A DNA stretch of 64,000 bases from Nitrospirota bacterium (GCA_963818475.1 CAWFSF010000002.1:1-64000); one strand, 5' to 3'. Shown: positions 1,709 through 16,636, counted from the first letter of the stretch. The notes: generated by a model from the letters alone, not told the origin. A program made the numbers and translations.

Positions 1709-1722
1709 CATACGGAGGGGCG

Positions 1723-1956
1723 ATGAGAACCATTCAAATGACTTTAGATGATGACTTAGTTGCATCAGTCGACCAGGTCGTCAAAAAGCTAAAAACAACC
1801 CGGTCTGCTTTTGCGCGCATGGCATTGAGGAATGCCATCAAACAGGTCAATGTCAACCATCTGGAAAAAAAGCACAAAAAAGGATACGTGCAGCACCCTG
1901 CTGACAAAACGGAATTTAGCGTCTGGGAGTCGGAGCAAGAATGGGGTGATTTATGA
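1723..1956 (+). CDS. Ribbon-helix-helix (CopG/MazE-type) antitoxin
   Basis: MRTIQMTLDDDLVASVD...RSAFARMAL RHH signature, acidic C-terminus, overlaps the toxin start. Confidence 0.85.
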   Translation: MRTIQMTLDDDLVASVDQVVKKLKTTRSAFARMALRNAIKQVNVNHLEKKHKKGYVQHPADKTEFSVWESEQEWGDL

Positions 1957-2264
1957 AGCGGGGTGAGGTGCGATGGTATAAGTTCAAGCATCCCGATAAA
2001 AAGCGCCCAGTGGTTATCTTAACGCGAAATTCAATCCTGGAATATTTGGGGGAAGTTACTATCGCGCCGGTAACTTCAACAATTAGAGATATTCCGAGTG
2101 AAGTGCTTTTGTCCCGCTTAGATGGCATGCATAATGATTGTGCGGTTAATTGTGACCACATACAAACGGTGGCAAAATCGAACGTCGGACCGATGATTAC
2201 CTCCTTGTCAAAAGAAAAGCTCCGCGAGGTTCGTGACGCTATCAACTTTGCATTGAATCTCTAG
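1953..2264 (+). CDS. mazF: PemK/MazF family endoribonuclease toxin
   Basis: MKRGEV...KKRPVVIL...APVTST...DHIQTV motifs. Confidence 0.9.
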   Translation: MKRGEVRWYKFKHPDKKRPVVILTRNSILEYLGEVTIAPVTSTIRDIPSEVLLSRLDGMHNDCAVNCDHIQTVAKSNVGPMITSLSKEKLREVRDAINFALNL

Positions 2265-2415
2265 AACCTATCTCAAAATTAATCATCTATTCAAAGTTCG
2301 TCATACTCGCGAAAGCGGGTATCCAGAAAAGGCCGAAAACACTGGATTCCCGTTTACACGGGAATGACGCAAAAAGACGGACGAAAGCAAAAAACTGATT
2401 TTGAAATAGGTTCTA
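2262..2415. mobile_element. 154-bp MITE-like element with an internal REP-like palindrome pair
   Basis: TIRs TAGAACCTATCTCAAAAT / ATTTTGAAATAGGTTCTA (17/18 match); internal GTCATACTCGCGAAAGCGGGTATCCAG...CTGGATTCCCGTTTACACGGGAATGAC. Confidence 0.75.
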
Positions 2416-2446: not shown

Positions 2447-4288
2447 TCATGCATTCTTCTTGAGCAGATCCACAAGCTGCCTGACGGTCGCGAACAGATC
2501 CCCCGCTATCGGATGGACCCTTGGCGCACTCCGCGTCTGGTTCAACTTCATGAGCGGCGCCTCCCTGTCCTTGTTAAAGCAGAGGATCTCCGCGCGCGTG
2601 CCGAGATAGTCGATGTGCTGCGGCGCGCCCGAGATACCGAGGGCGATCATGAGCTTCGGGTTCACGCGCACGCCGGTCTGGCCGATCTGCGCTTCCAGCG
2701 GCTGAAGCTTCAGGTCCTGCGTGACCTTGCGCGTTGCGCCGAAGAACGGGGCCAGACCCATGCCTTCCAGGGTTTCCTTAAGCTCCAGGGCCAGCTTCAT
2801 TCCCGCTTCGTTCCTTATGCCGTAGCCCAGGTCTATGATGACGTCAGCCCCGGTAAGCGTCGGCGCCGCAACAGGAGACAGTGGCATGATCCAGTCGGCA
2901 GAAAGTGCAAGGTCGAGCGTTGCTGCTGAGAACGCGTCTGACAAGGCCGGTACGGGGAACTCCGCTTCTGCTGCGATCGTGGCAAGCAGAGAGCCGTTTT
3001 CGAATAGTTCTTTTCTGATAAGCTTATTGTTGTACGCAGGAGCTGAAAGGACCAGGCCTCCATCCCGCGCTACGATATCCGTCACGCCTGAACAGAGCAG
3101 GAATCGTTTCTCAGCCGTCTCTGACTCGCCAGCCTCATACGCGAAAGTGCTGACCCATTCGGGCCCGGCAAGAATGATCGCTCTGTCCGCGTTCTTCAAC
3201 ACGCTCCGGACAACCGTCCGCTTGCCGACCTTCGACAGCCTTCCCTTCTGCGTATCGACACAGAACGCCTGTTTGCACCCGTTCGCCTTGGCGAGCCCCA
3301 GAAGCTGCGGCCAGGAATCTCTCGGAGCACAGAGGATCGCATGTGATTCCCTCTTCAATAAACTCGCCACATGAGCGCAAGCGCGAAGTACGGCAACATT
3401 CGACCGGGGCTGCTGCGGATCAAGCAACGCCCAGACCGCATCTCCGTGGGACAGCGTCGCCCCTTTTGATACGTCGCCCGCGTAAGCCTGCGCAAGGGAA
3501 GCGCTGGCTGAAGCAGCATAGAGCTTCAGAAACTCGGCAGCGCCTGCGGCATCGGTGATGGTTTTGGTCTCCGCCTGCTTCCCTTCGGGCGATGCGAACC
3601 GGGTCTGCGCCGAATAGAGCTTTGCCGGTTCCATCACGTGTATCTTTGCGAATGCGCTTTCGATCGCCTGCGGCATCGGCATCACTTCCTCACGCGCAAT
3701 GCGGGTAATGCTCACCACAGCCGGCAGCGCAATATGCTCGAGGCCGGTGTTGTCTGTCTTGGCAATGATATGCTCCCTGCGGTAATGGACCCGCTTGAAG
3801 GCCCCGGCGAGATATGCGCCGAGGCTCTGGTCGCCATTCATGCAATCAGCACCAATGATGATAAGGTCGTAGGGATAGAGCGCTTCAAGGCTTTTCACGG
3901 TCTTGATAATGGACTGCGGCCCTGCTGCCGGGTCAAGCGACAGGCGATGCAGGTCATCGGCGCGCGCACCTGCTGCTGTGCGAAGGATCGCTTCATGCTC
4001 CGGGCCTCCGGGCATCAGCACATCCACGATCACGTGAGAACCGCTCTGTTCTTTCAGGTTCAGCACCTGCGTAAGTCCGGACAGATCGCAGGGGTCCGGC
4101 TGCCACACGAGCTCGCGCAAAACCCCGTCGGAGATGCGCGGTATCGGCGCACAATCGGCCACAGGCCTGACGATCGCGAGGATACGGATCCCGGCCAGCA
4201 CGCTGCCGGGGGAGAAAGCTGCCATCGGGGCTTTCCCCAATAGACGGTCCAGTACCGCATCAGCTGCACGCACCTCGGGCATAGTCAA
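2447..4288 (-). CDS. Electron transfer flavoprotein beta+alpha fused region (probable C-terminal part of a giant fusion)
   Basis: ETF-beta-like DLIIIGAD...GDQSLG; ETF-alpha ADVIIDLGYG...GATRKV...QIGQTG...ALGISGAPQH. Confidence 0.8.
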   Translation of the reverse strand: MTMPEVRAADAVLDRLLGKAPMAAFSPGSVLAGIRILAIVRPVADCAPIPRISDGVLRELVWQPDPCDLSGLTQVLNLKEQSGSHVIVDVLMPGGPEHEAILRTAAGARADDLHRLSLDPAAGPQSIIKTVKSLEALYPYDLIIIGADCMNGDQSLGAYLAGAFKRVHYRREHIIAKTDNTGLEHIALPAVVSITRIAREEVMPMPQAIESAFAKIHVMEPAKLYSAQTRFASPEGKQAETKTITDAAGAAEFLKLYAASASASLAQAYAGDVSKGATLSHGDAVWALLDPQQPRSNVAVLRACAHVASLLKRESHAILCAPRDSWPQLLGLAKANGCKQAFCVDTQKGRLSKVGKRTVVRSVLKNADRAIILAGPEWVSTFAYEAGESETAEKRFLLCSGVTDIVARDGGLVLSAPAYNNKLIRKELFENGSLLATIAAEAEFPVPALSDAFSAATLDLALSADWIMPLSPVAAPTLTGADVIIDLGYGIRNEAGMKLALELKETLEGMGLAPFFGATRKVTQDLKLQPLEAQIGQTGVRVNPKLMIALGISGAPQHIDYLGTRAEILCFNKDREAPLMKLNQTRSAPRVHPIAGDLFATVRQLVDLLKKNA

Positions 4289-7200
4289 GGTTCTCTTTCA
4301 CCAGCTCCCATGCTGCAGCAGACTTCCGGTCAAGCTCCGTGAGACGGGACAAAGCGCGTTCAGCTGCCCGTTCGCCTGCTTTCCGCATGGAAGGAACATA
4401 TTCGGGCGATGCAGCTGACAGCGCTTTTTCATGCTCCTTAAGCCATGCCATGCGGTACTGGATGCACTCCAGCTTCAGGATCTCGCCTGCCATTTCAGCG
4501 AGCGGGAACAGGGCCGGCTGGAGCATGGCATCGGCCCAGGCAGTATCGCCTAAAAGCAGAGCGGCCTCCTTTACCTTTATTCGCAGCTTGTTCTTCCAGG
4601 GCAGAAGCGCCAGCGCGCCGGAATCCCCGGGCTCGCCGGAAAGCTCGGGCCAGTCAGCTGCCAAAGCGATCAGGTCCTTGATGATCAGGAAGCGCTGCAC
4701 CTCGTTCGTTCCTTCATAGATCGTGAGAATGCGGCTGTCGCGCCGCGCCTTTTCGAGCAGATATTTCTCGGTCTGGCCGATCGGGCCGAAGGCGCGCTCC
4801 ACAAGCGTAAGAAACTCGTGAATGTCCTCGGAGCAGACAAATTTCGCTATGGCCGATTCCATGCGCACCGACTCGTGCGGCCGGTCGAAGAGGCCGACCA
4901 GATAGTAGGCCAGCGACTCGCTCCCGAACAGCACGGCTGCTGCTTCGCCGAGCAGACGGTCGCGTTCGGAAGAGGCCGGGATGGCCAGAAGGGCCTCCTG
5001 CATGAGCTTGCGCATGAGCGCGCCTGACACGACCGCCAGGCCGCAGCGGCCCACGTTGAGCGTTTCCAAGGCGTTCACCTGGCCGTGGCCTTCGTACCCG
5101 ATCACGGCCTCGCGCGGCACGCGCGCGCTGTCGATCGAGATCTCGTTGGTGGGAGAGCCGCGCTGGCCTGTCTTCTTTTCATCAGCACCGACCTTGAGCC
5201 CCTCGCTATGCCGGTCGACCATGAATCCGGTGACGCCTTCAGGCGTCTGGGCGTACAAACAGAACTGGGTCGCAATGCTGCCGTTGGTGATCCACATCTT
5301 TGCGCCGGTCAGGACATAGAACTCGTAAACCGCTCCACGAGCGGACTTCCGCACCTGGCCGATGTCATGAAACTCGCACCGTTTCCCCTGATAGCTGTAG
5401 TACCGCACACCCTGATCGGTCGCGTAATCGTAGGCATCGTATTTGATCTCAGCGATCCCGTTGTCCGGCGTCCGGTACGCGATCCCCTGGTCAATGAATT
5501 CGATCCTGTCCGCGTCGATCAGATAGCGCACGCTCGCTGCGTCGCTTTCGGTCAGAACAAAGGAGTACCTGCCGTCGGGAAGGGGCTGCAGCTCTGCGGA
5601 CTGCAAGGCTGCCGTTGTCTTGACCCCGCCTGAATCGGAGCCTGCCGTGGGCTCGGTCAGGGCAAAGGCGCTCACGCCGCCGTGGCCCAGATAGCGCAGA
5701 AAGAGCTTATGGCAGCGTTCGCGCCGCGGCAGCTCTTCAAGCGCCGCGTGCACGTCAGGCATCACTTTTTCGAACAGCTCCTTCGCCTGTTTGAGGTTCG
5801 TAATGAAACCGCCGAAATCGCCCCGCTTCCCGGAAATGCCGGCGCCGTAGAAAGCGCGCAGAAAGTGGGCGCCCAGGTACTTGACCACGCGCGTGCGGCG
5901 GATGCGCGTATCCACGAGCTGCATCACCGCCTCATACTCTTTCTTGATCCAGGCCGGGTTGGGACTGCCGAGGGTCGCGACGATCCTTCCGAGCCGCTCT
6001 TTGATCTCGCCGAGCTTCTTCTCGTCCTCTGCCAGCGGAGCCAGCTCTTCATGCACGCGCGGCAGCTCGTCCTGAAGCCCCAGCAGGATCGGCGTGGTGC
6101 CGATGCTCGTGCTCGCCATGATCAGAAGATCGATGGAAGCGTCGCCGAAGCTCCCGGCTGCGGAGTTCAAGATATAGTATTCCGCCTTATGCCACCCGAG
6201 TCCGTGCTCCGTTTGCGGAACGTAGGTGGCGAGCCACTTGTTCTTCTTTACCGCATCAATGACCTCGTCCGGCAAGCGGTGATGCTTCTCGATCGAGCGC
6301 TCGATGCTGAGCCCGTCGAAATCTTTGGAGCTGCAGTTCGTCTTGAACCAGCCCGCTAGCTCCGCCCACCGGGTCCTGAGTGCCCTGTCATGCAGCTGCA
6401 TCTCCGGCACAAAACGAAGCGTCGAGTCCGCTGCGGTGGTAAGAAAGCGGGCTGATCTATGCGGCGCGCCGGGAGCGTTGCAAAAGGATTCATAATCCGG
6501 TTCGAGCTTGATCACTGTTCCTGTCGGCTCGACAGGGAATACCGCCCGGGGAGAGACGCTGCCCTGACCGACTGAGCGCCCGGCTTTTGCCAGGGCCTCT
6601 TCGGCAAGCCCCAGCAGCACTTCGATGAGCGCTGCTGCTGCCTCATTGCTTTTGCCTTTCCTGAGTTCCTGTTCAGAATCAGCCAGCAGAGCGCGCACAC
6701 CGAGCGCGAGGGCCTTTGCCTCTCCAGCAAGCAAGGCATCGGCTTCGGCAGAGAGCGCTTTGCTTTGCTCCATGATGCGGCGCAAGCGCGCAACTGATCC
6801 GGCAAGCGGCTCTCCCTGTATGGCCTTCAGGCTGCCGAGCTCCGGAAGGACGCTCTCCAGGTCCGATGAACCCAGTGCCGCGTTCAGGCCTGCTGCTGCG
6901 CCATAACCCGGCGTCAGGAACCGGTAAAGCGATGAATCGCGATAGGAGCGCGACAGCAGATCGTCCTCGGAATAAGCGAACCCGCCGAACACCTGGCCGG
7001 CATCGTATCCCATGGTCCCGGCTTCAGGACCGAAAGCAAGGGCCGCGAGGGTGGAGCAGAGGGCGTGATAAAGTCCGGAGTCTTGAGTTCGGAGTTCGGG
7101 GTGAGCATGAAGATCGTAAAGCGTTTGGAGGAGTAAACGCCAGGCTTCGGTGCGGGCGATCAGGGCTTTTACCGCGCCGAGCTTTGCGATGCCGTCCCTG

Positions 7201-8018
7201 CCTTCGGTATCCAGCATCTGGCCCGGGAACTGGACCCTGCCGAGGGCGTGCTCCTTCACCCGCTTGCAGAGATAATCGCCTGCTCCGAGCGCAATGGCAA
7301 GATAGAAGCGGCTGTCCGGCGCATGCCCGCTGTCTGGTGCCATGATCGCCTGCTTGCTGATCGAACAATCAAGGGTGATGTCGGCAAGTGCCGCTGCTCT
7401 GAAACCGATCGCCGGCGTCAGCGTGACCGCGACTCCCGGCAGCGAGAGCGGCACAAGATGGCCGCGGCCATGAGCAATGATGAGGAGCGTGCTGCAGGCG
7501 GCGGTCGGGACCAGGCTGAGCGAACCCTGTATCCGGACGCTATCGATGGCCTCCTGAATATCGAGGTGGTCGCCGTGAACCGCAGCGATCCCGGGCGGGA
7601 GCGCGGTCTCCGCCTGTGCCAATGTACTGATGGCAAGGAACTGATGCGCTGCGACCAGCCCGAGAGCCGGGCTTACGCAGGACAGGGCGCGCACGGTCTC
7701 AGCCGGCTGCTCACGATGGTCAGCGATGAACTGCTGCATTTTTTCTTCCCATTCCGCCGGCAGGGGCGCTTCTTCCCATTGCTTTACGATCCTGTCCGGG
7801 AACAGGCTTGATGCCTCCTCATAGATAGTGCGGCCTGGCGCGTTCCGGCCGTTTTCTTGAGGGACGTTCGGAAGCTCCCAGGCAAGTATCCGTTCGTCGA
7901 TCCGTTTCGCAGTATAGAACGCGTGGAAGAACCGGCTCTCGCCAAGACGCGTTTCGAGGTCCTTTCGCTCCTTTTGCACGGCCGCTGCCTGCGCATGCCT
8001 GCTTTCGTTCGCAAGCAT
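4260..8018 (-). CDS. Tandem acyl-CoA dehydrogenase domains (probable middle part of a giant fusion)
   Basis: First domain RVQFPG...QVFGGFAYSED...YRDS; second domain AFALTEPTAGSD, GAKMWITNG, KTGQRGSPT, RILTIYEGTNEVQR. Confidence 0.85.
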   Translation of the reverse strand: MLANESRHAQAAAVQKERKDLETRLGESRFFHAFYTAKRIDERILAWELPNVPQENGRNAPGRTIYEEASSLFPDRIVKQWEEAPLPAEWEEKMQQFIADHREQPAETVRALSCVSPALGLVAAHQFLAISTLAQAETALPPGIAAVHGDHLDIQEAIDSVRIQGSLSLVPTAACSTLLIIAHGRGHLVPLSLPGVAVTLTPAIGFRAAALADITLDCSISKQAIMAPDSGHAPDSRFYLAIALGAGDYLCKRVKEHALGRVQFPGQMLDTEGRDGIAKLGAVKALIARTEAWRLLLQTLYDLHAHPELRTQDSGLYHALCSTLAALAFGPEAGTMGYDAGQVFGGFAYSEDDLLSRSYRDSSLYRFLTPGYGAAAGLNAALGSSDLESVLPELGSLKAIQGEPLAGSVARLRRIMEQSKALSAEADALLAGEAKALALGVRALLADSEQELRKGKSNEAAAALIEVLLGLAEEALAKAGRSVGQGSVSPRAVFPVEPTGTVIKLEPDYESFCNAPGAPHRSARFLTTAADSTLRFVPEMQLHDRALRTRWAELAGWFKTNCSSKDFDGLSIERSIEKHHRLPDEVIDAVKKNKWLATYVPQTEHGLGWHKAEYYILNSAAGSFGDASIDLLIMASTSIGTTPILLGLQDELPRVHEELAPLAEDEKKLGEIKERLGRIVATLGSPNPAWIKKEYEAVMQLVDTRIRRTRVVKYLGAHFLRAFYGAGISGKRGDFGGFITNLKQAKELFEKVMPDVHAALEELPRRERCHKLFLRYLGHGGVSAFALTEPTAGSDSGGVKTTAALQSAELQPLPDGRYSFVLTESDAASVRYLIDADRIEFIDQGIAYRTPDNGIAEIKYDAYDYATDQGVRYYSYQGKRCEFHDIGQVRKSARGAVYEFYVLTGAKMWITNGSIATQFCLYAQTPEGVTGFMVDRHSEGLKVGADEKKTGQRGSPTNEISIDSARVPREAVIGYEGHGQVNALETLNVGRCGLAVVSGALMRKLMQEALLAIPASSERDRLLGEAAAVLFGSESLAYYLVGLFDRPHESVRMESAIAKFVCSEDIHEFLTLVERAFGPIGQTEKYLLEKARRDSRILTIYEGTNEVQRFLIIKDLIALAADWPELSGEPGDSGALALLPWKNKLRIKVKEAALLLGDTAWADAMLQPALFPLAEMAGEILKLECIQYRMAWLKEHEKALSAASPEYVPSMRKAGERAAERALSRLTELDRKSAAAWELVKENLDYARGACS

Positions 8019-8022
8019 GGCT

Positions 8023-10350
8023 TCAAGTTTTTTGAGCTCGCCCCCCAGCCGTTTTCCGAGCGCGGCAGGCCAGGACCGTCTTGAGACATCGGCCGATGCA
8101 GGCAGGCTGGTGACAGCGGTTTGAAAAGCGGCTGACGCGTTCAGCTACACTGCGACCGGCGGAAACAACGCCGTCCCCGGGATACCAGAGCGTTTCTTCG
8201 AAAGACGCTGCACTATGATGCCGGCCTTGAACAACACTCCCGCCAAGAGCATCCAGCAAAAGCGGAAATGCCGCGCTCTCCGGCCGGTAGACCAGCTTGT
8301 GGTCGGTATGGCGCCCCCAGAGCGTTCGCGCCGGTTCAGCCCGCCAGCAGGATTCGCACTTGATGCAGTTCTCATAATTCACCGTCACCCTGCCGCGGCC
8401 GGCAAAAGGCGGCGCATCGTAGCCATAGACGCGCGCCGGGCAGACCCACCAGAGCCCTGCCTGCGACATATCGCCCTGGGCCGCCGTCTTCTCAGGCCAG
8501 AGCGTCCTGATGTGCGATGCTGCTCCGACGCGGTAGGTGTTCGTTGCAAGCTTTGCTTCAAGGGAAAGCGCCGGCCTGATGGAATCGAGGTCGCGCGCTT
8601 TTTTCTGCGACTCGTTGTAAGCCATCACCGGCTCGGCAAGCAGCATCTGCACCGGAGTTTTCAGAACATAAAAACGGAACGCGTCCCAGAGCGCGGTACC
8701 GAGGGCAAGGCAGAACAGCGTCAGACCGAAAGCAGGAAGCATCGCAAGGTCGGTCAGCTTGATGCTCTGCAGCATGATGCGCACTGCCCGCCTGAGCTTT
8801 TTCTTGAAGGGTATCGTGTCGTTGGCGTAGACCTGTTCAAGCGCGGACATAAGCGCGGGAGCAGTTCTTTTGAGCAGGGAGCCGAGGGGCCAGGGAAGTG
8901 ATGCTGCCTCAACCTCCCTGCCATTGATATGCAGCACCACGCGGAGCTTCGGATCAGGCTCCGGGGTCAGCTTCAGGAGGTTCGTGACCCAGAGGCCCGG
9001 GGTGACCGGATTTATCAGAGAAAGCGCAAGGGGCTTTCCGAGCCTGAGGCTGCCGAAGGCGCGCAGGGTATCGATAAAAAGTTCCTTCAGACCGCGATAG
9101 GAGAGGATATGACTCCTGAGGAACCGGCCGGTATCGACAAGACCGCTGCCTGACAGGAAGTGGGCCGAGCCGCAGGCCACGTCCACGGTCCTGCCGAAGA
9201 GCACGCTCGATCGTCCGAAGTAAGCCGGCCAGGCGGAAAGATGCTCTGCATTCGCCCCGTAGACGCTTGCCTGGAGCGGATGGAGATATTCATGTGCAAG
9301 GTTTTTTGCATCAAAGGAACTGCCGCGTTTGAAGATGTTCTTTACCGCACGGCTGAAATAGAGGCCGGTGGCCGAGGCCGGGCCGGTGAAGTTCGGGAAT
9401 GGGAGGTCGATGCCGAGGCCCGCTGAAGCGCCGCCGACCACGAGCCCGTCTTCGACGAGCACCGGGCGCTCGCGCCACCCGCCGCTTCTGATGATCTTCG
9501 TGCCGTATGAGGAAAGTGTGGCGCCTTCAGTAAGCTCCTTGATAAAGGGAAGGCCGCGCATCCATTCGAACAGCCGGTCATGGTCGCCGCGATAGTTGTT
9601 CCGCACATTATCAAGCGGCACGACATATCCGATCGAAAGGCTGTCGCGGTTGGTGTAGAGGAACCCGCCGACATTCAGCTTCGCGGTCCGTCCGCCGATG
9701 GCCGCGTTCCTGAGGAGCAGCTCATAGGCAGCGCCTTCGCCCGGTTTGAGCCTGAAGCGCTGCTCGATCAGTTCAGGCTTGAGCGACAGGACCGCTTTCA
9801 CGCCCTGAAGATAGTGCGGCGCTGCCACGCGTTCAAGCTGCTCCGAGCGCACCAGGTGCGAAGCGTCGCCTTCGGCAAGGAACGTCACCCCTGCGTACAA
9901 CGGCCCGCAGTTCGTTTCCGCACCGATAACGCGGCCTTCTTTTCTGATGAGCGACGTGACCGTGGTGTTCGTAAGAAGGACAGCGCCTTTTTTGCGTGAC
10001 AGGTGGGCGAAGTAGGGATCGTAGACCGGCCGGAGCACGGTGTAGCAGTTCTTGAAAACAGCGGGGTCAGTGAGTTCTACACCGACCACATCAAGGCTGT
10101 TATGGAGCAGCGTTCCGCGGCGATGCACCGGCCGCTCATAGGGGGCTGCTGCCACGGCAGCAGGGCCGAAGCAGTCCTCTTCAGCAAGGTTCTCGGTAAA
10201 ATAGACGCAGCCCGACCAGTTCTCCGCCCCGGCATACACGCCGGCTTCGAGCAGCGCAACGGAGATGCCCGTCCCGGCAAGCGCTCCGGCAGCAGCCACG
10301 CCTGCCGGCCCGGCGCCGATCACGATGACGTCGAACCTGTACTGTTTCAT
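8023..10350 (-). CDS. FixC-like FAD oxidoreductase (ETF:quinone oxidoreductase) fused to a FixX-like ferredoxin (probable N-terminal part of a giant fusion)
   Basis: AGGAG RBS before ATG 10350; DVIVIGAGPAG, GFLYTNRDSLSIG; hydrophobic segment; CPARVY...CIKCESCW. Confidence 0.8.
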   Translation of the reverse strand: MKQYRFDVIVIGAGPAGVAAAGALAGTGISVALLEAGVYAGAENWSGCVYFTENLAEEDCFGPAAVAAAPYERPVHRRGTLLHNSLDVVGVELTDPAVFKNCYTVLRPVYDPYFAHLSRKKGAVLLTNTTVTSLIRKEGRVIGAETNCGPLYAGVTFLAEGDASHLVRSEQLERVAAPHYLQGVKAVLSLKPELIEQRFRLKPGEGAAYELLLRNAAIGGRTAKLNVGGFLYTNRDSLSIGYVVPLDNVRNNYRGDHDRLFEWMRGLPFIKELTEGATLSSYGTKIIRSGGWRERPVLVEDGLVVGGASAGLGIDLPFPNFTGPASATGLYFSRAVKNIFKRGSSFDAKNLAHEYLHPLQASVYGANAEHLSAWPAYFGRSSVLFGRTVDVACGSAHFLSGSGLVDTGRFLRSHILSYRGLKELFIDTLRAFGSLRLGKPLALSLINPVTPGLWVTNLLKLTPEPDPKLRVVLHINGREVEAASLPWPLGSLLKRTAPALMSALEQVYANDTIPFKKKLRRAVRIMLQSIKLTDLAMLPAFGLTLFCLALGTALWDAFRFYVLKTPVQMLLAEPVMAYNESQKKARDLDSIRPALSLEAKLATNTYRVGAASHIRTLWPEKTAAQGDMSQAGLWWVCPARVYGYDAPPFAGRGRVTVNYENCIKCESCWRAEPARTLWGRHTDHKLVYRPESAAFPLLLDALGGSVVQGRHHSAASFEETLWYPGDGVVSAGRSVAERVSRFSNRCHQPACIGRCLKTVLACRARKTAGGRAQKT

Positions 10351-10553
10351 GGTGGCTCCTTTTTGGATATGAGAAAATGCGGCTAGTGAAGTATGAGCGC
10401 GATTGACAGGGTGGCAGATCAAATGGGACAAACAAAGTATAGCAAAATTTTTATTATTTGGATACAATCTATACCATACTGCAAAGGTGCAGAACGCCTC
10501 AGTGGTTTGTGGTTGGTTTTGACACTCCGGTTCAATTAAGAGGTAGTCACGAT

Positions 10554-10787
10554 ATGAAGAACAGCATCGGCATTATTGTGTTGGCACTGACCATACTGGC
10601 GTTCCTCTTTTTCCTCTCCTCCCGCAAAAAAGCGCCGATGCTGCCGGATGACGAGGCACACAGACAGGTGCAGTCGAACTCCCTCTGCCAGACATGCCAT
10701 GCCCCTGGAAAACTGTCGCCCCTTAAGCCTTCCCATCCGCCCAAAGAGCAGTGCCTGTTGTGCCACAGAACAGAAAAAGCCCGATAG
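10554..10787 (+). CDS. Small membrane-anchored diheme cytochrome c
   Basis: N-terminal TM helix; CQTCH and CLLCH, plus two additional His residues. Confidence 0.8.
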   Translation: MKNSIGIIVLALTILAFLFFLSSRKKAPMLPDDEAHRQVQSNSLCQTCHAPGKLSPLKPSHPPKEQCLLCHRTEKAR

Positions 10788-11049: not shown

Positions 11050-11628
11050 ATGGAAAGCTACCGCTACCAGCAGTTCCTGTATCTGATCATACCGCTCACC
11101 GTCGGCATCGAGTTCTTTCTGACCGCACAACAGGAGCGCAGGACCCTGAGCAAGGAAACGGCCGTTGCGGTCATGATGGATGTTGGAGGCTACCTCTTCA
11201 CGGCACTGGTCCCGGCGCTGTTCCTGTTCACCATTTTCAGCCTGTCCCGGCACCGCCTGCCGCTCCCTGAGCAGTTCCTGCACCGCATGGACCGCTACGG
11301 GGTCATGTTCTTTTTCCTCGGCTCCTGGTGGCAGATTTTCCTGATCACCGGCCTCCGCGCGCGGCGCGCCGCTGCTGCCGGGAAAGCGATCTTCACCTGC
11401 GTCTGGTGCCCTTATCTCGCGCTGGGCCTCTTCGTTTCCGCCCTGATCCTCTGGACCGCGCCCTTCGGCCTGATGTGGTTCTCGGTCTTCTGGTTCGCGG
11501 CAAGCTACGGGATCCTCTATCTCTTCGACGTATCAGCCCCCAAGGTATCGAAGGTCTTTTTCGTCCTGGCCGGCATCACGTTCGTTTGCGAGAACTTTTT
11601 TTTCGTTATCCTCGACGCCATTATCTGA
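11050..11628 (+). CDS. Hypothetical polytopic membrane protein
   Basis: About six hydrophobic segments; purine-rich RBS before ATG 11050. Confidence 0.65.
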   Translation: MESYRYQQFLYLIIPLTVGIEFFLTAQQERRTLSKETAVAVMMDVGGYLFTALVPALFLFTIFSLSRHRLPLPEQFLHRMDRYGVMFFFLGSWWQIFLITGLRARRAAAAGKAIFTCVWCPYLALGLFVSALILWTAPFGLMWFSVFWFAASYGILYLFDVSAPKVSKVFFVLAGITFVCENFFFVILDAII

Positions 11629-12400: not shown

Positions 12401-14146
12401 TCAACAGTACAAGGGATCTGCGCAGGTCAGCACCTGCTCGCTTTTGCTGCCGCTCCGGAATATAGTGATGCCCTTCACGCCTTCTTGCCAGGCAAGCAAA
12501 AAGGCTTTCCGAACATCCTCCTTCGTTGACCCGGGCGGGAAGTTGATGGTCTTGGACACGGCATTGTCCGTAAAGCGCTGGAATGCCGCCTGCATGCGGA
12601 CATGCCATTCCGGGGCAATGTCGAAAGCGGTCACGAACAACCGTTTCAGGTCCTGCGGCACGCCGGTCATGCGCTGGAGGGATTCCCCTGCGGTGATCCG
12701 CATAAGGAACTGGTCCGTATAAAAGCCGCGCGCTTTGGCAATCTCGATCAGATACTCATACACCTCGGGCAGAGCGACATCCTCGAGCACGTGGCGGGTG
12801 AACGACAGTGCAAAGAGCGGTTCGATGCCGCTCGAACATCCGGCGATAAGAGAAAGCGTTCCTGTCGGGGCCACCGTTGTCACGGTCGCGTTCCTGAGCC
12901 TCGGCCCCTGCTCCCTGTCGTATCTGCTCCCGGGAAAATTCGGGAATACCCCCCGCTCCCTGGCCAGTTCCTCGGACATTCCCCTGCCGGTCCTTTTGAT
13001 GAACTGCATGAGCTCTTCGCCGGTCCTGATCGCCGCTTCGGAATCGTAAGGGATGCCGAGCCGGATAAGCAGGTCCGCAAAACCCATGACCCCGAGGCCG
13101 ATCTTCCGGTTGCCCTTTGCCATGCCGTCGATCCGGTCGAGCGGGTAACGGCTCATATCGATCACGTTGTCCAGAAAATGCACGGATGTTCGCACGGTCC
13201 GCTCGAGCCTGTCCCAGTCGATCTCGTATCCGCTGCCCGTGCTCCTGAGCATCTTGAGCAGATTGATCGAACCCAGGTTGCAGGGCTCATAGGGCAGCAG
13301 GGGCTGTTCGCCGCAGGGGTTGGTGCTTTCCATCTCGCCGAGCTGCGGCGTGGGGTTGTCGCGATTGATCCGGTCGAGAAAGATGATGCCGGGATCGCCG
13401 GTCTTCCAGGCCATCTCCACGATCCGGTCGAAGACCTCGCGGGCCTTGAGTGTCCGCACCACCAATTTGTTGTGAGGATTGACAAGGTGAAGATCGCCGT
13501 CAACCTCGACAGCGCGCATGAAATCCTCATGCACCGCAACAGAGAGATTGAAGTTCGAAAGCTCCTTATTGTCAATCTTTGCCGTGATGAATTCCAGGAT
13601 ATCGGGATGGTCGACCCTGAGGATGCCCATGTTCGCGCCGCGGCGCATGCCCCCTTGTTTGATCACCTCCGTGGCCATGTTGAAGACCTGCATGAACGAC
13701 ACCGGGCCGCTCGCTGCGCCCCCCGTGGAATGCACAGAATCATTCCGGGGCCGCAGCCTGCTGAACGAAAAACCGGTCCCGCCGCCGCTTTGGTGGATGA
13801 GAGCGGTATTTTTGACGCTCTCGAATATGGACTCGAGCGAGTCCTCGACAGGAAGGACAAAACAGGCGGCGAGCTGCTGAAGGGGCCGGCCTGCGTTCAT
13901 CAGGGTCGGGGAGTTGGGAAGGAATTCAAGGCGCGACAGGATGCCGTAAAAATCGTCTTCGGTCTTCCGCCTCTCGGCATGATCATCGTACAAAAGATCG
14001 GCCTCTGCCACGTTCCCCGCAACCCGCTGGAACAGTTCTTCCGGCGATTCCATGACCCGCCCCTGTTCGTCCTTCTTGAGATAGCGACGGCTAAGAACGG
14101 TCAACGCATTTGCGGTAAGGTGCCCCTTTGTGGACATGACTGCCAT
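12401..14146 (-). CDS. nrdJ: Class II (adenosylcobalamin-dependent) ribonucleotide reductase
   Basis: FLPNSPTLMNAG, GGGTGF, RRGANM, TNPCGEQPL, CNLGS, APTGT, DNAVSKTIN; C-terminal Cys pair. Confidence 0.92.
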   Translation of the reverse strand: MAVMSTKGHLTANALTVLSRRYLKKDEQGRVMESPEELFQRVAGNVAEADLLYDDHAERRKTEDDFYGILSRLEFLPNSPTLMNAGRPLQQLAACFVLPVEDSLESIFESVKNTALIHQSGGGTGFSFSRLRPRNDSVHSTGGAASGPVSFMQVFNMATEVIKQGGMRRGANMGILRVDHPDILEFITAKIDNKELSNFNLSVAVHEDFMRAVEVDGDLHLVNPHNKLVVRTLKAREVFDRIVEMAWKTGDPGIIFLDRINRDNPTPQLGEMESTNPCGEQPLLPYEPCNLGSINLLKMLRSTGSGYEIDWDRLERTVRTSVHFLDNVIDMSRYPLDRIDGMAKGNRKIGLGVMGFADLLIRLGIPYDSEAAIRTGEELMQFIKRTGRGMSEELARERGVFPNFPGSRYDREQGPRLRNATVTTVAPTGTLSLIAGCSSGIEPLFALSFTRHVLEDVALPEVYEYLIEIAKARGFYTDQFLMRITAGESLQRMTGVPQDLKRLFVTAFDIAPEWHVRMQAAFQRFTDNAVSKTINFPPGSTKEDVRKAFLLAWQEGVKGITIFRSGSKSEQVLTCADPLYC

Positions 14147-14230
14147 TTCCCTGCCTCTATGAATATTTTACCACAGGGAAACAGCAGGAGACAGTGAATT
14201 AAACGGGCGACGACAAAAGGCAGGAATATT

Positions 14231-14351
14231 TCTCGCAAAGCTCGCAAAGGACGCCAAGAAAATCCTAAACCACGGACTGCTTTTTGGTTTTTAACCCAGA
14301 AAAGATTTGGACTCTCGGTTTCCTTTGCGCTCTTTGCGAGCTTTGCGAGAG
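14231..14351. repeat. Palindromic intergenic element, family B (CGCAAAG units)
   Basis: TCTCGCAAAGCTCGCAAAGGACGC...CTTTGCGCTCTTTGCGAGCTTTGCGAGA; second copy at 41356. Confidence 0.75.
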
Positions 14352-14430
14352 ACGCCTTGTGCTTCCGGGGTTGTCCGGTTAGGATTATGGGGCTTGATCA
14401 CGACTGATACGTTCAGCAAAACCACCGTAA

Positions 14431-15589
14431 CTACAGCCCCAGCACACCAACATGTTCGAGGACACTCTGCCGGATCCGGGCGGGCGGCTCCGGCTTCACC
14501 AGCTGCTGGCCGTGGTCAAGGGCCGGGACCAGCAGGTCGGTGAACGGCCCGTTGCAGGAGCAGTTGCTCCCGTAGACATCGTTCGGAACGATCTTCCGCT
14601 CGCCGCAGAGGGCGCACATGAGCACCCGCTTGCTTCCCGACCACTTGCCCCTCTTCGCGAGAGGCTTGCCGTCCACTTCGACGATGTCCATGGCGAAGTC
14701 GACCACCGGAGCGTTGCTGATGGTCGTCCCGATGCCGTAGCCCTGGACCACGGGATTCAGGCCGGGAATATCCTGCTCCTTGATGCCGCCGCTCACAAAG
14801 AACTTGACGTGTTTGAACCCCCGGAGATCAAGCTCCCACCGCGTTTCCTCCAGGATGCGGTAAAAGTTTCCGCGCCGCGACCCCGGCGTGTCGAACCGCA
14901 CGGCATAGAGCCGCTCGCCCAGGGCCTGCGCCACGTTCAGGGTCTCGAACTTCTCGTCCTGGAAGGTGTCGATGAGCGCCACGCGCCGGAGCTTTGGCTC
15001 CAGCACCTCGTCGTAGGCCTTGATCGCCTCCACGGTGGAGCCCATGCACAGGATGAGCGCGTGGGGCATGGTGCCCATGGGGTCCTCGCCGATAAGCTCG
15101 CCGGACTTTACCACGGCAACGCCGTCGCACCCGCCGATGAAGGCGTTCCGTTCGATCATGGGCGCGAGGATGGGATGCATCCGCCGCGCGCCGAAGCTCA
15201 TGACCACGCGGTCGCCGGCCAGCTTCTTCATTCTCGCAGCCCTGGTGGCGATGCCCGATGCCTGGCAGAGCAGGCCCAGTATTGCGGTCTCGTACACGCA
15301 GAAATCCTGATACCGTCCCTCGATCTCCAGGACCGGTCTCATAGGGATAAAAGACCGTCCCCTCCTTCATGGCCCTGACCTTGATATTGAGCTGCTTCAG
15401 GAGCGGAAGGGACTCGTCGATGCCCGTGAATACCGCCCATTTCCAGTCTTCCGGCAGGTTCTTGGCAATGACCTCAGCCTTTACCACGGGGTCGATCGCC
15501 CTTGCCTTCAGGATCCTGAGCGCCCGCTCGAAATACACATCCGTGATCTTCCCGTCAAGAATGTCCTTCGGGTCCGCGGTAAAGAACAT
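14431..15589 (-). CDS. pncB: Nicotinate phosphoribosyltransferase (one +1 frameshift near 15337, probably an assembly error)
   Basis: TDVYF N-terminus in one frame; SFGARRMHP, GTMPHA, VRFDTPGSRRG in the next frame. Confidence 0.85.
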
Positions 15590-15637
15590 GGTTACCTCCA
15601 ATTTCGGATTGCGGATTGAAAAAAGCTGAGCAACCTA

Positions 15638-15787
15638 AAAAACCTTTGACACAGATCAAATCGGATAAAAACCGGATAACTGCGGATTTTTCTTTTGGCT
15701 GATCTTTCACTCTTTCATGATTCTTTTTTATCCGCCCTTATCAGCTCTTACCGATTTTTCCGTGTTCATCCGTGTCAAAAGCTTTTC
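15638..15787. repeat. Palindromic intergenic element, family C (CGGATAA units)
   Basis: TTTGACACAGAT...CGGATAAAAACCGGATAA...TATCCG...ATCCGTGTCAAA. Confidence 0.65.
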
Positions 15788-15808
15788 AATCGGTATCCCT
15801 AATTTTTT

Positions 15809-16369
15809 TCACGCCGCTTTCTTCTCCGCGGCGTCCGTACCCGCTTTCACCAGCTTAGCGCCCAGAACGTTCTTCATGATACGAAGCGCAGCGATATGGT
15901 CTTCCTGGTCGATGCCCGCCACCCCGTCCTCCACCACCGTGACCGTTAAGTTGCGCAGGACAATTTCATAGGCCGTGAACAGGATGCAGATATGCGTTAC
16001 GCAGCCCATGAGCCTGATGGAATCTACTTCGAGCTTTTTCAGGATGTCGTCCAGATTCGTGCCGAAGAACGCGGAGTAGTCGCTCTTCCTCACCACCACG
16101 TCTCCCGGCCGGGGCGCAAGCTCGTCAATGATCTCTGCGCCTTTCGTCCCTCTTACGGCATGGGCCGGCCATCCGAACCTGGTGAACTCCTTGTCATCAG
16201 GAGCATGGGCATCGCAGACATAGATCACCGGTCTTCCTTCAGCCCGGGCGCCGTTCACTTCCTGTTGGATGTTCCCAACGATCTTGCGGTTATCCGGGAC
16301 CTCCAGGGGCGCGCCCGGCCGCACAAAATCGTTCAGCATGTCGATGATCAGCAAAGCTTCCTTTTTCAT
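15809..16369 (-). CDS. pncA: Nicotinamidase / isochorismatase-family cysteine hydrolase
   Basis: IIDMLNDF, DAH, WPAHAV, KSDYSAF, GCVTHIC; adjacent to pncB. Confidence 0.8.
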   Translation of the reverse strand: MKKEALLIIDMLNDFVRPGAPLEVPDNRKIVGNIQQEVNGARAEGRPVIYVCDAHAPDDKEFTRFGWPAHAVRGTKGAEIIDELAPRPGDVVVRKSDYSAFFGTNLDDILKKLEVDSIRLMGCVTHICILFTAYEIVLRNLTVTVVEDGVAGIDQEDHIAALRIMKNVLGAKLVKAGTDAAEKKAA

Positions 16370-16636
16370 GCCAATCACCTCCTCTTTGTACTTTCATTAT
16401 AATTGTAACACTTAAGCGATTTTTTGCATAAACAGCGAGGATGGTGTGAGAGGAAAGGGAAAAGTGGCTGGTAGCGGGATAGTCCTGTCAGGGCAGTGTA
16501 AAGGTCCTGTTATTTGTGGAGAGTTAACCGGTCCCTGCCTTGATGCGTCCATATTGCGGTCGAGGCTTTCGTTGTCTATCGTGATGGGGGTCAAAAAATG
16601 ACCCTTCAGGTTGCAAAAATCCTCGTTCTCTTTCAC

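Follow-up and report, generated by a model that had tools for sequence, protein, structure and literature searches.

Whether one protein can carry electrons from an acyl-CoA substrate all the way to a membrane quinone is the question raised by three overlapping open reading frames (ORFs) on the minus strand of a contig from a Nitrospirota bacterium (GCA_963818475.1 CAWFSF010000002.1:1-64000; this whole stretch of 64,000 nucleotides is termed the window). The frames (10350-8023, 8144-4260, and 4297-2447) lie where an earlier note on this DNA had placed them, each shifted by +1 relative to the one before, and that note had proposed that they form a single polypeptide with the domain order FixC-FixX-ACAD-ACAD-EtfB-EtfA, where ACAD denotes acyl-CoA dehydrogenase and EtfB and EtfA the two subunits of an electron-transfer flavoprotein (ETF). 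We conclude that the frames are almost certainly one intact gene (the giant gene) and that the single-chain fusion family to which it belongs is real, conserved, and widespread. Judging from sequence and structure models, its product (the giant protein) would be a membrane-attached, single-chain acyl-CoA:menaquinone oxidoreductase of beta-oxidation, a reading to which we give a probability of roughly three in four. The host assembly comprises 4.66 Mb in 7 contigs, and the closest relatives at the locus are Nitrospirota metagenome-assembled genomes at 11 of 11 loci.

A search for long homologs covered proteins of 2,266-5,000 amino acids (aa), a range in which split forms are invisible, and the best 120 of its 297 matches were analysed. 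The first 95 share 41-86% identity with the middle frame over 97-100% of its length and are nearly all ~2,600-2,750 aa long; the remaining 25 are mostly 2,800-3,030 aa with 36-41% identity. Using profiles made from the long homologs themselves, we found FixC, FixX, a first ACAD-like half (ACAD′), ACAD, EtfB, and EtfA domain II in this order on one chain in 116 of the best 120, as had been proposed, and the other four each lack one or two end modules. The search for full-length single-ORF homologs that the earlier note had suggested gave the same picture: with no length limit, the match lies in a single frame at 61 of 67 loci (29 of those complete), and the six exceptional loci hold overlapping-frame breaks (L001, L038, L040, L058, and L067) or an in-frame stop within EtfB (L006). 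Source names of the homologs include Nitrospirota, Nitrospiria, Leptospirillia, and Acidobacteriota. Of 301 genomes in the phylum, those with strong matches (E < 1e-100) were 44/63 other genomes of the host family and 7/7 of one other family; none of the remaining genomes searched had one.

ACAD′ was likewise encountered as part of the fusion. Among the best 150 of 732 matches to it in 1.84 billion representatives, no clear stand-alone gene was seen, the strong full-length matches being giant proteins or apparent fragments (fragments are not fully separable from real short genes in this search); 31 of the 34 matches of at least 2,200 aa also carry FixC, FixX, ACAD′, ACAD, and EtfA domain II, and ordinary ACADs (~350 aa) enter only from E ~1e-15. 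A seemingly natural split between the ACAD halves in genome G099 was rejected, because the scaffold has a gap of Ns at that point. Plasmids gave no match at E 1e-30, the ESM Atlas nothing beyond ordinary ACAD clusters, and the PDB no chain spanning more than one module among the 60 matches listed. No published description of the fusion was found in the literature searched, most subscription journals lying outside its coverage, and the available part of PMC7382037 does not mention it; current annotations of the homologs go no further than 'acyl-CoA dehydrogenase family' or 'ETF-quinone oxidoreductase'. Reduced relatives were also noted. In three proteins of 1,409-1,713 aa (P0231, P0269, and P0246), FixC and a divergent FixX remain but the core of the catalytic ACAD is gone, and EtfA domain II gives no match; these could be paralogs in decay or a derived form with a regulatory role. 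At G200:C2:133903-136191 (L069), only residues 1-496 and 2428-2641 of the giant gene are left, and the same genome has FadE, FadN-type, and EtfD-like genes; this may reflect decay after replacement, or misassembly.

Six intact homologs span the window as three consecutive, overlapping blocks, which in P0004 correspond to residues 1-742, 724-2036, and 2032-2645 at 81-87% identity. In DNA alignments with L001, L002, and L003, the window carries one extra base at ~8146 and one at 4283-4285 (3/3 relatives). The earlier note had advised mapping reads to the junctions, and in 4/4 runs neither base 4285 nor base 8146 is present in the short-read contigs of relatives; these contigs are mostly 90-95% alike to the window and therefore do not come from this strain. 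The first break, placed by the note at 8023-8147, is present, but its extra base lies at the upstream edge of that overlap, and the ATG at 8018 does lack any ribosome-binding site comparable to the AGGAG of the ATG at 10350. The two breaks are almost certainly assembly or sequencing errors.

The modules were then compared with known families and folds. For the N-terminal part, L003, an intact homolog sharing 84% identity with the window, was modelled over residues 1-849 (predicted local distance difference test (pLDDT) 87.3, predicted template modelling score (pTM) 0.88). Motifs and properties were counted in 159 sequences of more than 2,300 aa, a set drawn from both proteins and loci, with some duplicates among them. 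The first frame matches NF007450 (E 3e-45) and the FixC family NF007542 (E 7e-38), both below cut-off. Residues 2-436 of the model align with Thermotoga EtfC (7koe_C; Z 38.3, root-mean-square deviation (rmsd) 2.2, 419 aligned), and residues 1-690, taken as a rigid body, with residues 31-583 of the porcine ETF-quinone oxidoreductase (ETF-QO; 2gmh_A; Z 31.3, rmsd 3.4, 480 aligned). The ETF-QO iron-sulfur family PF05187 matches weakly at 636-673 (18 against a 24-bit cut-off), and PF21162 reaches 17.1 against 27.7 bits, so that both hidden Markov models of the ETF-QO family score beneath their thresholds. The iron-sulfur domain holds four cysteines in 151/159 sequences and five in 8/159, a pattern that fits a single [4Fe-4S] cluster as in ETF-QO and not two as in FixX. 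The earlier note's 'FixX' is therefore present as a domain, but its four cysteines indicate the single-cluster ETF-QO type and not a FixABCX-type module.

Between FixC and FixX lies a hydrophobic helix of variable sequence, whose 19-residue hydropathy is at least 1.6 in 153/159 sequences; the L003 model places the helices of this insertion at 515-528 and 534-561. The conserved hydropathy agrees with the membrane anchor that had been proposed here, but a single transmembrane anchor was rejected on topology, because the flanking domains pack together as in ETF-QO. From the model, the helix is probably a one-sided (monotopic) membrane anchor.

The two ACAD halves were modelled as one unit from the window residues between 7817 and 4287 (pLDDT 88.4, pTM 0.88). 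A single-sequence search of the PDB with ACAD′ gave nothing significant; its profile matches the ACAD 2dvl (E 1.4e-10), and its fold (model residues 1-320) that of 1r2j (Z 27.7, rmsd 2.7, 296 aligned). In the second frame, ACAD N, middle, and C domains were recognised at 616-1157 (PF02771, 22.7 bits against a cut-off of 22.9; PF02770; PF00441), and this catalytic half (model residues 452-1177) resembles Bacillus FadE (3owa; Z 31.0, rmsd 3.1, 491 aligned) and the very-long-chain ACAD (VLCAD) 8ca1 (Z 27.1), a long-chain FadE/VLCAD match that includes the C-terminal extension. Two insertions interrupt this half, one helical (~125 aa) and one of beta structure (~95 aa).

In ACADs, the RxQF and QxxGG motifs bind the FAD of the partner subunit. 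ACAD′ keeps near-invariant RxQF, GQxxGG, and YRD motifs, aligned with the same motifs of solved ACADs, and shows YEGT in 0/159, KxWIT in 0/159, and an LTEP-like motif in 3/159 sequences. The catalytic half has EG[TA]N and KMWITN in 159/159 each and a near-invariant LTEPxAGSD, with RxQF and QxxGG in 0/159 each. On these motif counts, ACAD′ supplies the partner-side FAD motifs lost by the catalytic half, and the two probably pair as a pseudo-dimer, in which each chain would have a single FAD and a single active site. The catalytic Glu of YEGT that the earlier note had seen in the second half is thus retained throughout, and the first half, which it had called degenerate, is non-catalytic but not merely degenerate. 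The domain annotation and structure prediction that it had recommended recovered the module folds for FixC-FixX and for both ACAD halves.

When the C-terminal 610 residues were searched as a profile, ETF beta chains (such as 1o94_C, E 3e-23) were matched first, followed by alpha chains. The FAD domain of ETF alpha (PF00766) was found at 481-562 of the third frame (63.4 against a 27-bit cut-off), and its motifs QIGQ[TS]G and SGAPQH recur in 153/159 and 151/159 sequences, the rest being mostly truncated. Only this alpha domain II is strongly conserved; the EtfB nucleotide segment is among the least conserved parts, and the AMP-site region of EtfB is divergent in the alignment. The bifurcating motif of EtfB occurs in 0/159 sequences by this sequence test. 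A canonical ETF holds one FAD plus AMP and a bifurcating ETF a second FAD (PMC13761266). The ETF of the giant protein looks non-bifurcating from its sequence, and given this and the four-cysteine FixX, the module would therefore work like ETF/ETF-QO and not like FixABCX.

The mechanism we propose is as follows. The ACAD′/ACAD pseudo-dimer, with one FAD and one catalytic Glu, would oxidise acyl-CoA to enoyl-CoA; the FAD on the tethered EtfA domain II would take up the electrons singly and swing to the [4Fe-4S] cluster; and the FixC FAD would reduce menaquinone at the membrane surface, with the hydrophobic helix holding the enzyme from one side. The predicted cofactors are three FAD and one [4Fe-4S], with neither bifurcation nor proton pumping expected. 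From the genomic context, the enzyme would perform the FadE step for FadD, FadI, and FadJ, standing in for separate FadE, EtfAB, and EtfD-type proteins.

At L031 and L057, the giant gene lies directly downstream of genes for a long-chain acyl-CoA ligase (fadD), a thiolase (fadI), and a FadJ-like protein; at the near-identical L025 and L026 it follows the fadD ligase and fadJ, and at L045 FadJ is 5.5 kb upstream. The host has fadD-fadI-fadJ at C6:2144549-2149989 with no ACAD beside them. Among 64 genomes of the host family, FadJ was found in 40/45 carriers of the giant gene versus 4/19 non-carriers, Bacillus-type FadE in 4/45 versus 12/19, a FadN-type enzyme in 4/45 versus 11/19, and an EtfD-like gene in 6/45 versus 15/19. 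The giant gene is present in 36 of the 37 genomes with FadJ but without FadE. It appears to supply the missing FadE step in many uncultured Nitrospirota where fadD-fadI-fadJ occur with no long-chain FadE. Four non-carriers, all of one genus, have none of FadJ, FadE, FadN-type, and EtfD-like genes; another, G005, has an operon of a FadN-type enzyme, thiolase, FadE, EtfD-like protein, EtfB, and EtfA. Futalosine-pathway menaquinone genes are present in the host, together with matches to heme-copper oxidases, cytochrome bd, and NrfA; menaquinone is therefore the likely acceptor and can be kept oxidised.

Several points weigh against this assignment. FixC family scores lie beneath curated cut-offs, and the read evidence on the frame breaks comes from relatives and not from this strain. 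Beta-oxidation genes adjoin the giant gene at just 4/67 loci, two of them near-identical (L025 and L026), and its neighbours at most loci are unrelated. The co-occurrence counts are not independent, because they follow genera, and many of the genomes are incomplete; five carriers lack a FadJ match, and four also have FadE (one of these, G200, with just a truncated giant-gene copy). The host has two other ACADs, each beside ETF genes, and an EtfD-like gene, so other routes exist. The acyl-CoA/enoyl-CoA couple lies at ~-10 mV. With menaquinone at -74 mV (PMC10734219), transfer from acyl-CoA is slightly uphill, and the giant protein has no heme redox loop; given the uphill step and the lack of a heme and iron-sulfur wire like that of EtfD, the direction in vivo is one that we infer.

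Compared with the canonical relay from ACAD through EtfAB to ETF-QO (VLCAD 8ca1/2uxw, ETF 1efv, ETF-QO 2gmh), the giant protein has the same three stages and folds, a single-cluster iron-sulfur domain packed on a flavin domain, and an apparently non-bifurcating ETF. It differs in holding all stages in one chain of 2,300-3,000 residues, where four or five proteins are normal, in a quinone reductase nearer FixC in sequence, in an ETF dedicated to one dehydrogenase, and in menaquinone as the probable quinone in the host. With FixABCX/EtfABCX (Thermotoga 7koe; Azotobacter, PMC13761266) it shares the FixC fold (TM 0.87 on the target), a FixX-like domain, and an ETF; unlike these, it has one cluster and not two, no conserved bifurcating-FAD site, a fused ACAD in place of NADH as donor, and a ~160-residue insertion with a hydrophobic helix. 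A fused EtfB-EtfA, in that order, is known from Sulfolobus acidocaldarius (PMC12042025), there as a stand-alone bifurcating ETF without ACAD or quinone reductase.

The ACAD pair would work, on its motif pattern, like the alpha2beta2 ACADs ChsE4-ChsE5 and ChsE1-ChsE2, where binding of the FAD ADP-ribose falls to the beta subunit (PMC11153573): one half carries the isoalloxazine and catalytic-Glu side and the other the ADP-ribose contacts. It is not a member of that type, given that its halves are fused and not products of two adjacent genes forming a heterotetramer, and that its active half belongs with VLCAD and Bacillus FadE, having a C-terminal extension and the Glu position of medium-chain ACAD. 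The combination of FadE, EtfAB, and EtfD/EMO (Mycobacterium EtfD, PMC13083937; the G005 operon) is likewise a proposed link between beta-oxidation and menaquinone; its quinone end is not homologous, EtfD having Fe-S clusters plus heme b and a membrane domain (PMC13083937), and EtfD-type and giant genes largely alternate among genomes of the family.

The giant protein is thus a single-chain version of the known ACAD-ETF-ETF-QO relay, with familiar parts and chemistry, which limits the surprise. Because ETF contacts the dehydrogenase and the quinone reductase only transiently, the complete relay is difficult to examine. A naturally occurring 1:1:1 chain of donor, shuttle, and acceptor could allow the whole path to be followed in one molecule by cryo-EM and kinetics, and could serve as a one-gene module that couples either a respiratory chain or an electrode to acyl-CoA chemistry. 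More tentatively, and at somewhat less than even odds, the fusion may be a widespread, undescribed 290-kDa enzyme in which tethering permits uphill transfer from acyl-CoA to menaquinone without the heme loop of EtfD/EMO, as a third bacterial solution for linking beta-oxidation to respiration; if so, the two docking states of ETF would be naturally captured in a single particle.

Of the alternatives, the one that fares best keeps the architecture and chemistry but assigns a specialised substrate (a branched, aromatic, dicarboxylic, or other acyl-CoA, or an acyl-ACP) in place of general beta-oxidation. The two large conserved insertions in the catalytic ACAD, the absence of fad neighbours at most loci, and the action of alpha2beta2-type ACADs on steroid side chains (PMC11153573) would suit it; we consider it unlikely, as the best folds are those of long-chain FadE/VLCAD, the gene adjoins a long-chain ligase, thiolase, and FadJ where linked, and it alternates with Bacillus-type FadE. 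Somewhat less probable again is operation in reverse in vivo, as a menaquinol:enoyl-CoA reductase serving as an electron sink or in lipid tailoring. The two potentials given above slightly favour this direction, and no heme loop is there to drive uphill transfer, but the fadD-fadI-fadJ linkage, the high-potential sinks by which the host can keep menaquinone oxidised, and the alternation with the EtfD-type gene, which serves oxidation (PMC13083937), all point the other way.

It is highly improbable that, within a real family, this strain has a genuine pseudogene or translates its copy through programmed frameshifting. The best sequencing run shared just 9% of words with this strain, and broken or truncated copies occur elsewhere (the in-frame stop at L006, the internal gap in G200); yet identity to relatives of 81-87% is sustained across all three parts, relatives have no offset at either site, and a +1 bias pervades the host genome. 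The split of pncB nearby, reported in the earlier note, was confirmed, and FadJ and dsrA are likewise split elsewhere. In 20 regions compared with a same-genus genome, 51/114 genes had frame changes, 54 of the 69 changes being +1, and clean one-base events (a count at the DNA level that took in L002 and L003) comprised 120 insertions versus 16 deletions in 191,567 aligned bases. The resulting rate of about one +1 event per 1.6-2 kb predicts 4-5 in 7.9 kb, where two were seen. A homopolymer was extended by 37 of the 120 insertions, among which no sequence motif explaining the errors was found. Over the whole host genome, ~45% of longer genes are broken by systematic one-base insertions, and other 'split gene' findings from this assembly are therefore suspect. 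Least probable of all is an electron-bifurcating, FixABCX-like machine coupling NADH, acyl-CoA, and ferredoxin, for although Thermotoga EtfC (7koe_C) is the nearest match to the FixC domain and the top ETF profile matches include bifurcating complexes, the EtfB nucleotide segment is little conserved with the bifurcating motif in none of the 159 sequences, and FixX has four cysteines in nearly all of them where FixABCX has two clusters (PMC13761266).

The features of the giant gene are collected in Table 1.

Table 1. Features of the giant gene and its flanks, in window coordinates.
Feature	Position	Strand	Remarks
Whole gene	2447..10350	-	~2,633 codons without the two extra bases; intact homologs mostly 2.6-3.0k aa
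Ribosome-binding site AGGAG	10356..10360	-	5 nt upstream of ATG 10350; from sequence
FixC/EtfC-like FAD and quinone-reductase domain	9043..10350	-	Residues 1-436; family profiles and L003 model fold
Insertion with amphipathic and hydrophobic helix (~8686-8748)	8551..9042	-	Residues ~437-600; probable monotopic membrane anchor
FixX / ETF-QO iron-sulfur domain, CPA + CxxCxxC	8281..8550	-	One [4Fe-4S] predicted
Helical linker, three long helices	7820..8280	-	Contains break 1; L003 model helices 725-746, 754-780, 784-822
Extra base 1 (+1), probable assembly error	8146..8146	-	Absent from L001-L003 and 4/4 runs
ACAD′, non-catalytic acyl-CoA dehydrogenase half	6858..7817	-	RxQF and GQxxGG kept; profile, fold, motif counts
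Helical connector joining the two ACAD halves	6537..6857	-	Model secondary structure
Catalytic ACAD: LTEPxAGSD, KMWITNG, IYEGT	4650..6536	-	Glu codon 4715-4713; Pfam, motifs, fold
VLCAD/FadE-type C-terminal helical extension	4287..4649	-	3owa, 8ca1, and 8phf alignments reach model residue 1177
Extra base 2 (+1), somewhere in this stretch, probable assembly error	4283..4285	-	Relatives and runs
EtfB-like domain III	3518..4192	-	ETF beta profile matches; nucleotide site poorly conserved
EtfA N-terminal domain I	2888..3448	-	ETF alpha profile matches, 6fah_A E 2e-27
EtfA domain II, electron-transfer FAD site GxxRK, QIGQ[TS]G, SGAPQH	2456..2866	-	PF00766 E 2e-17
Terminator-like hairpin	2346..2365	-	3′ of the gene; weak, 1 found versus 0.6 expected by chance

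The other ACADs of the host lie in settings of their own. One, at C6:362628-369332 (L070), sits with etfB-etfA inside a fatty-acid synthesis cluster, having a fabH-like gene on one side and fabD-fabG-acpP-fabF-like genes on the other (fab labels from sequence); most genomes of the family have an ACAD of similar length. At C6:106047-125812, an ACAD accompanies AMP-ligases, an acyl-carrier-like ORF, an EtfD-like gene, and etfB-etfA in a surface-polysaccharide-type locus. The host dsrA co-occurs with genes for O2 and nitrite respiration.

Around the giant gene, a 4HBT-type thioesterase gene lies shortly downstream at six related loci (L015-L019 and L022). In the window, a small ORF directly divergent from the start of the giant gene (10485-10787, plus strand) has an N-terminal hydrophobic segment and two CxxCH motifs, making it a probable diheme cytochrome c by sequence, and a small membrane protein gene, also divergent and close by (11051-11628, plus strand), has homologs in 10/68 regions. 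The stretch at 1720-2264 (plus strand) holds a two-gene pair that we take to resemble a ribbon-helix-helix antitoxin and a PemK/MazF-type toxin. Further on, 12401-16393 (minus strand) contains a class II ribonucleotide reductase-like ORF, the split pncB, and a pncA-like ORF, as labelled from their sequences.

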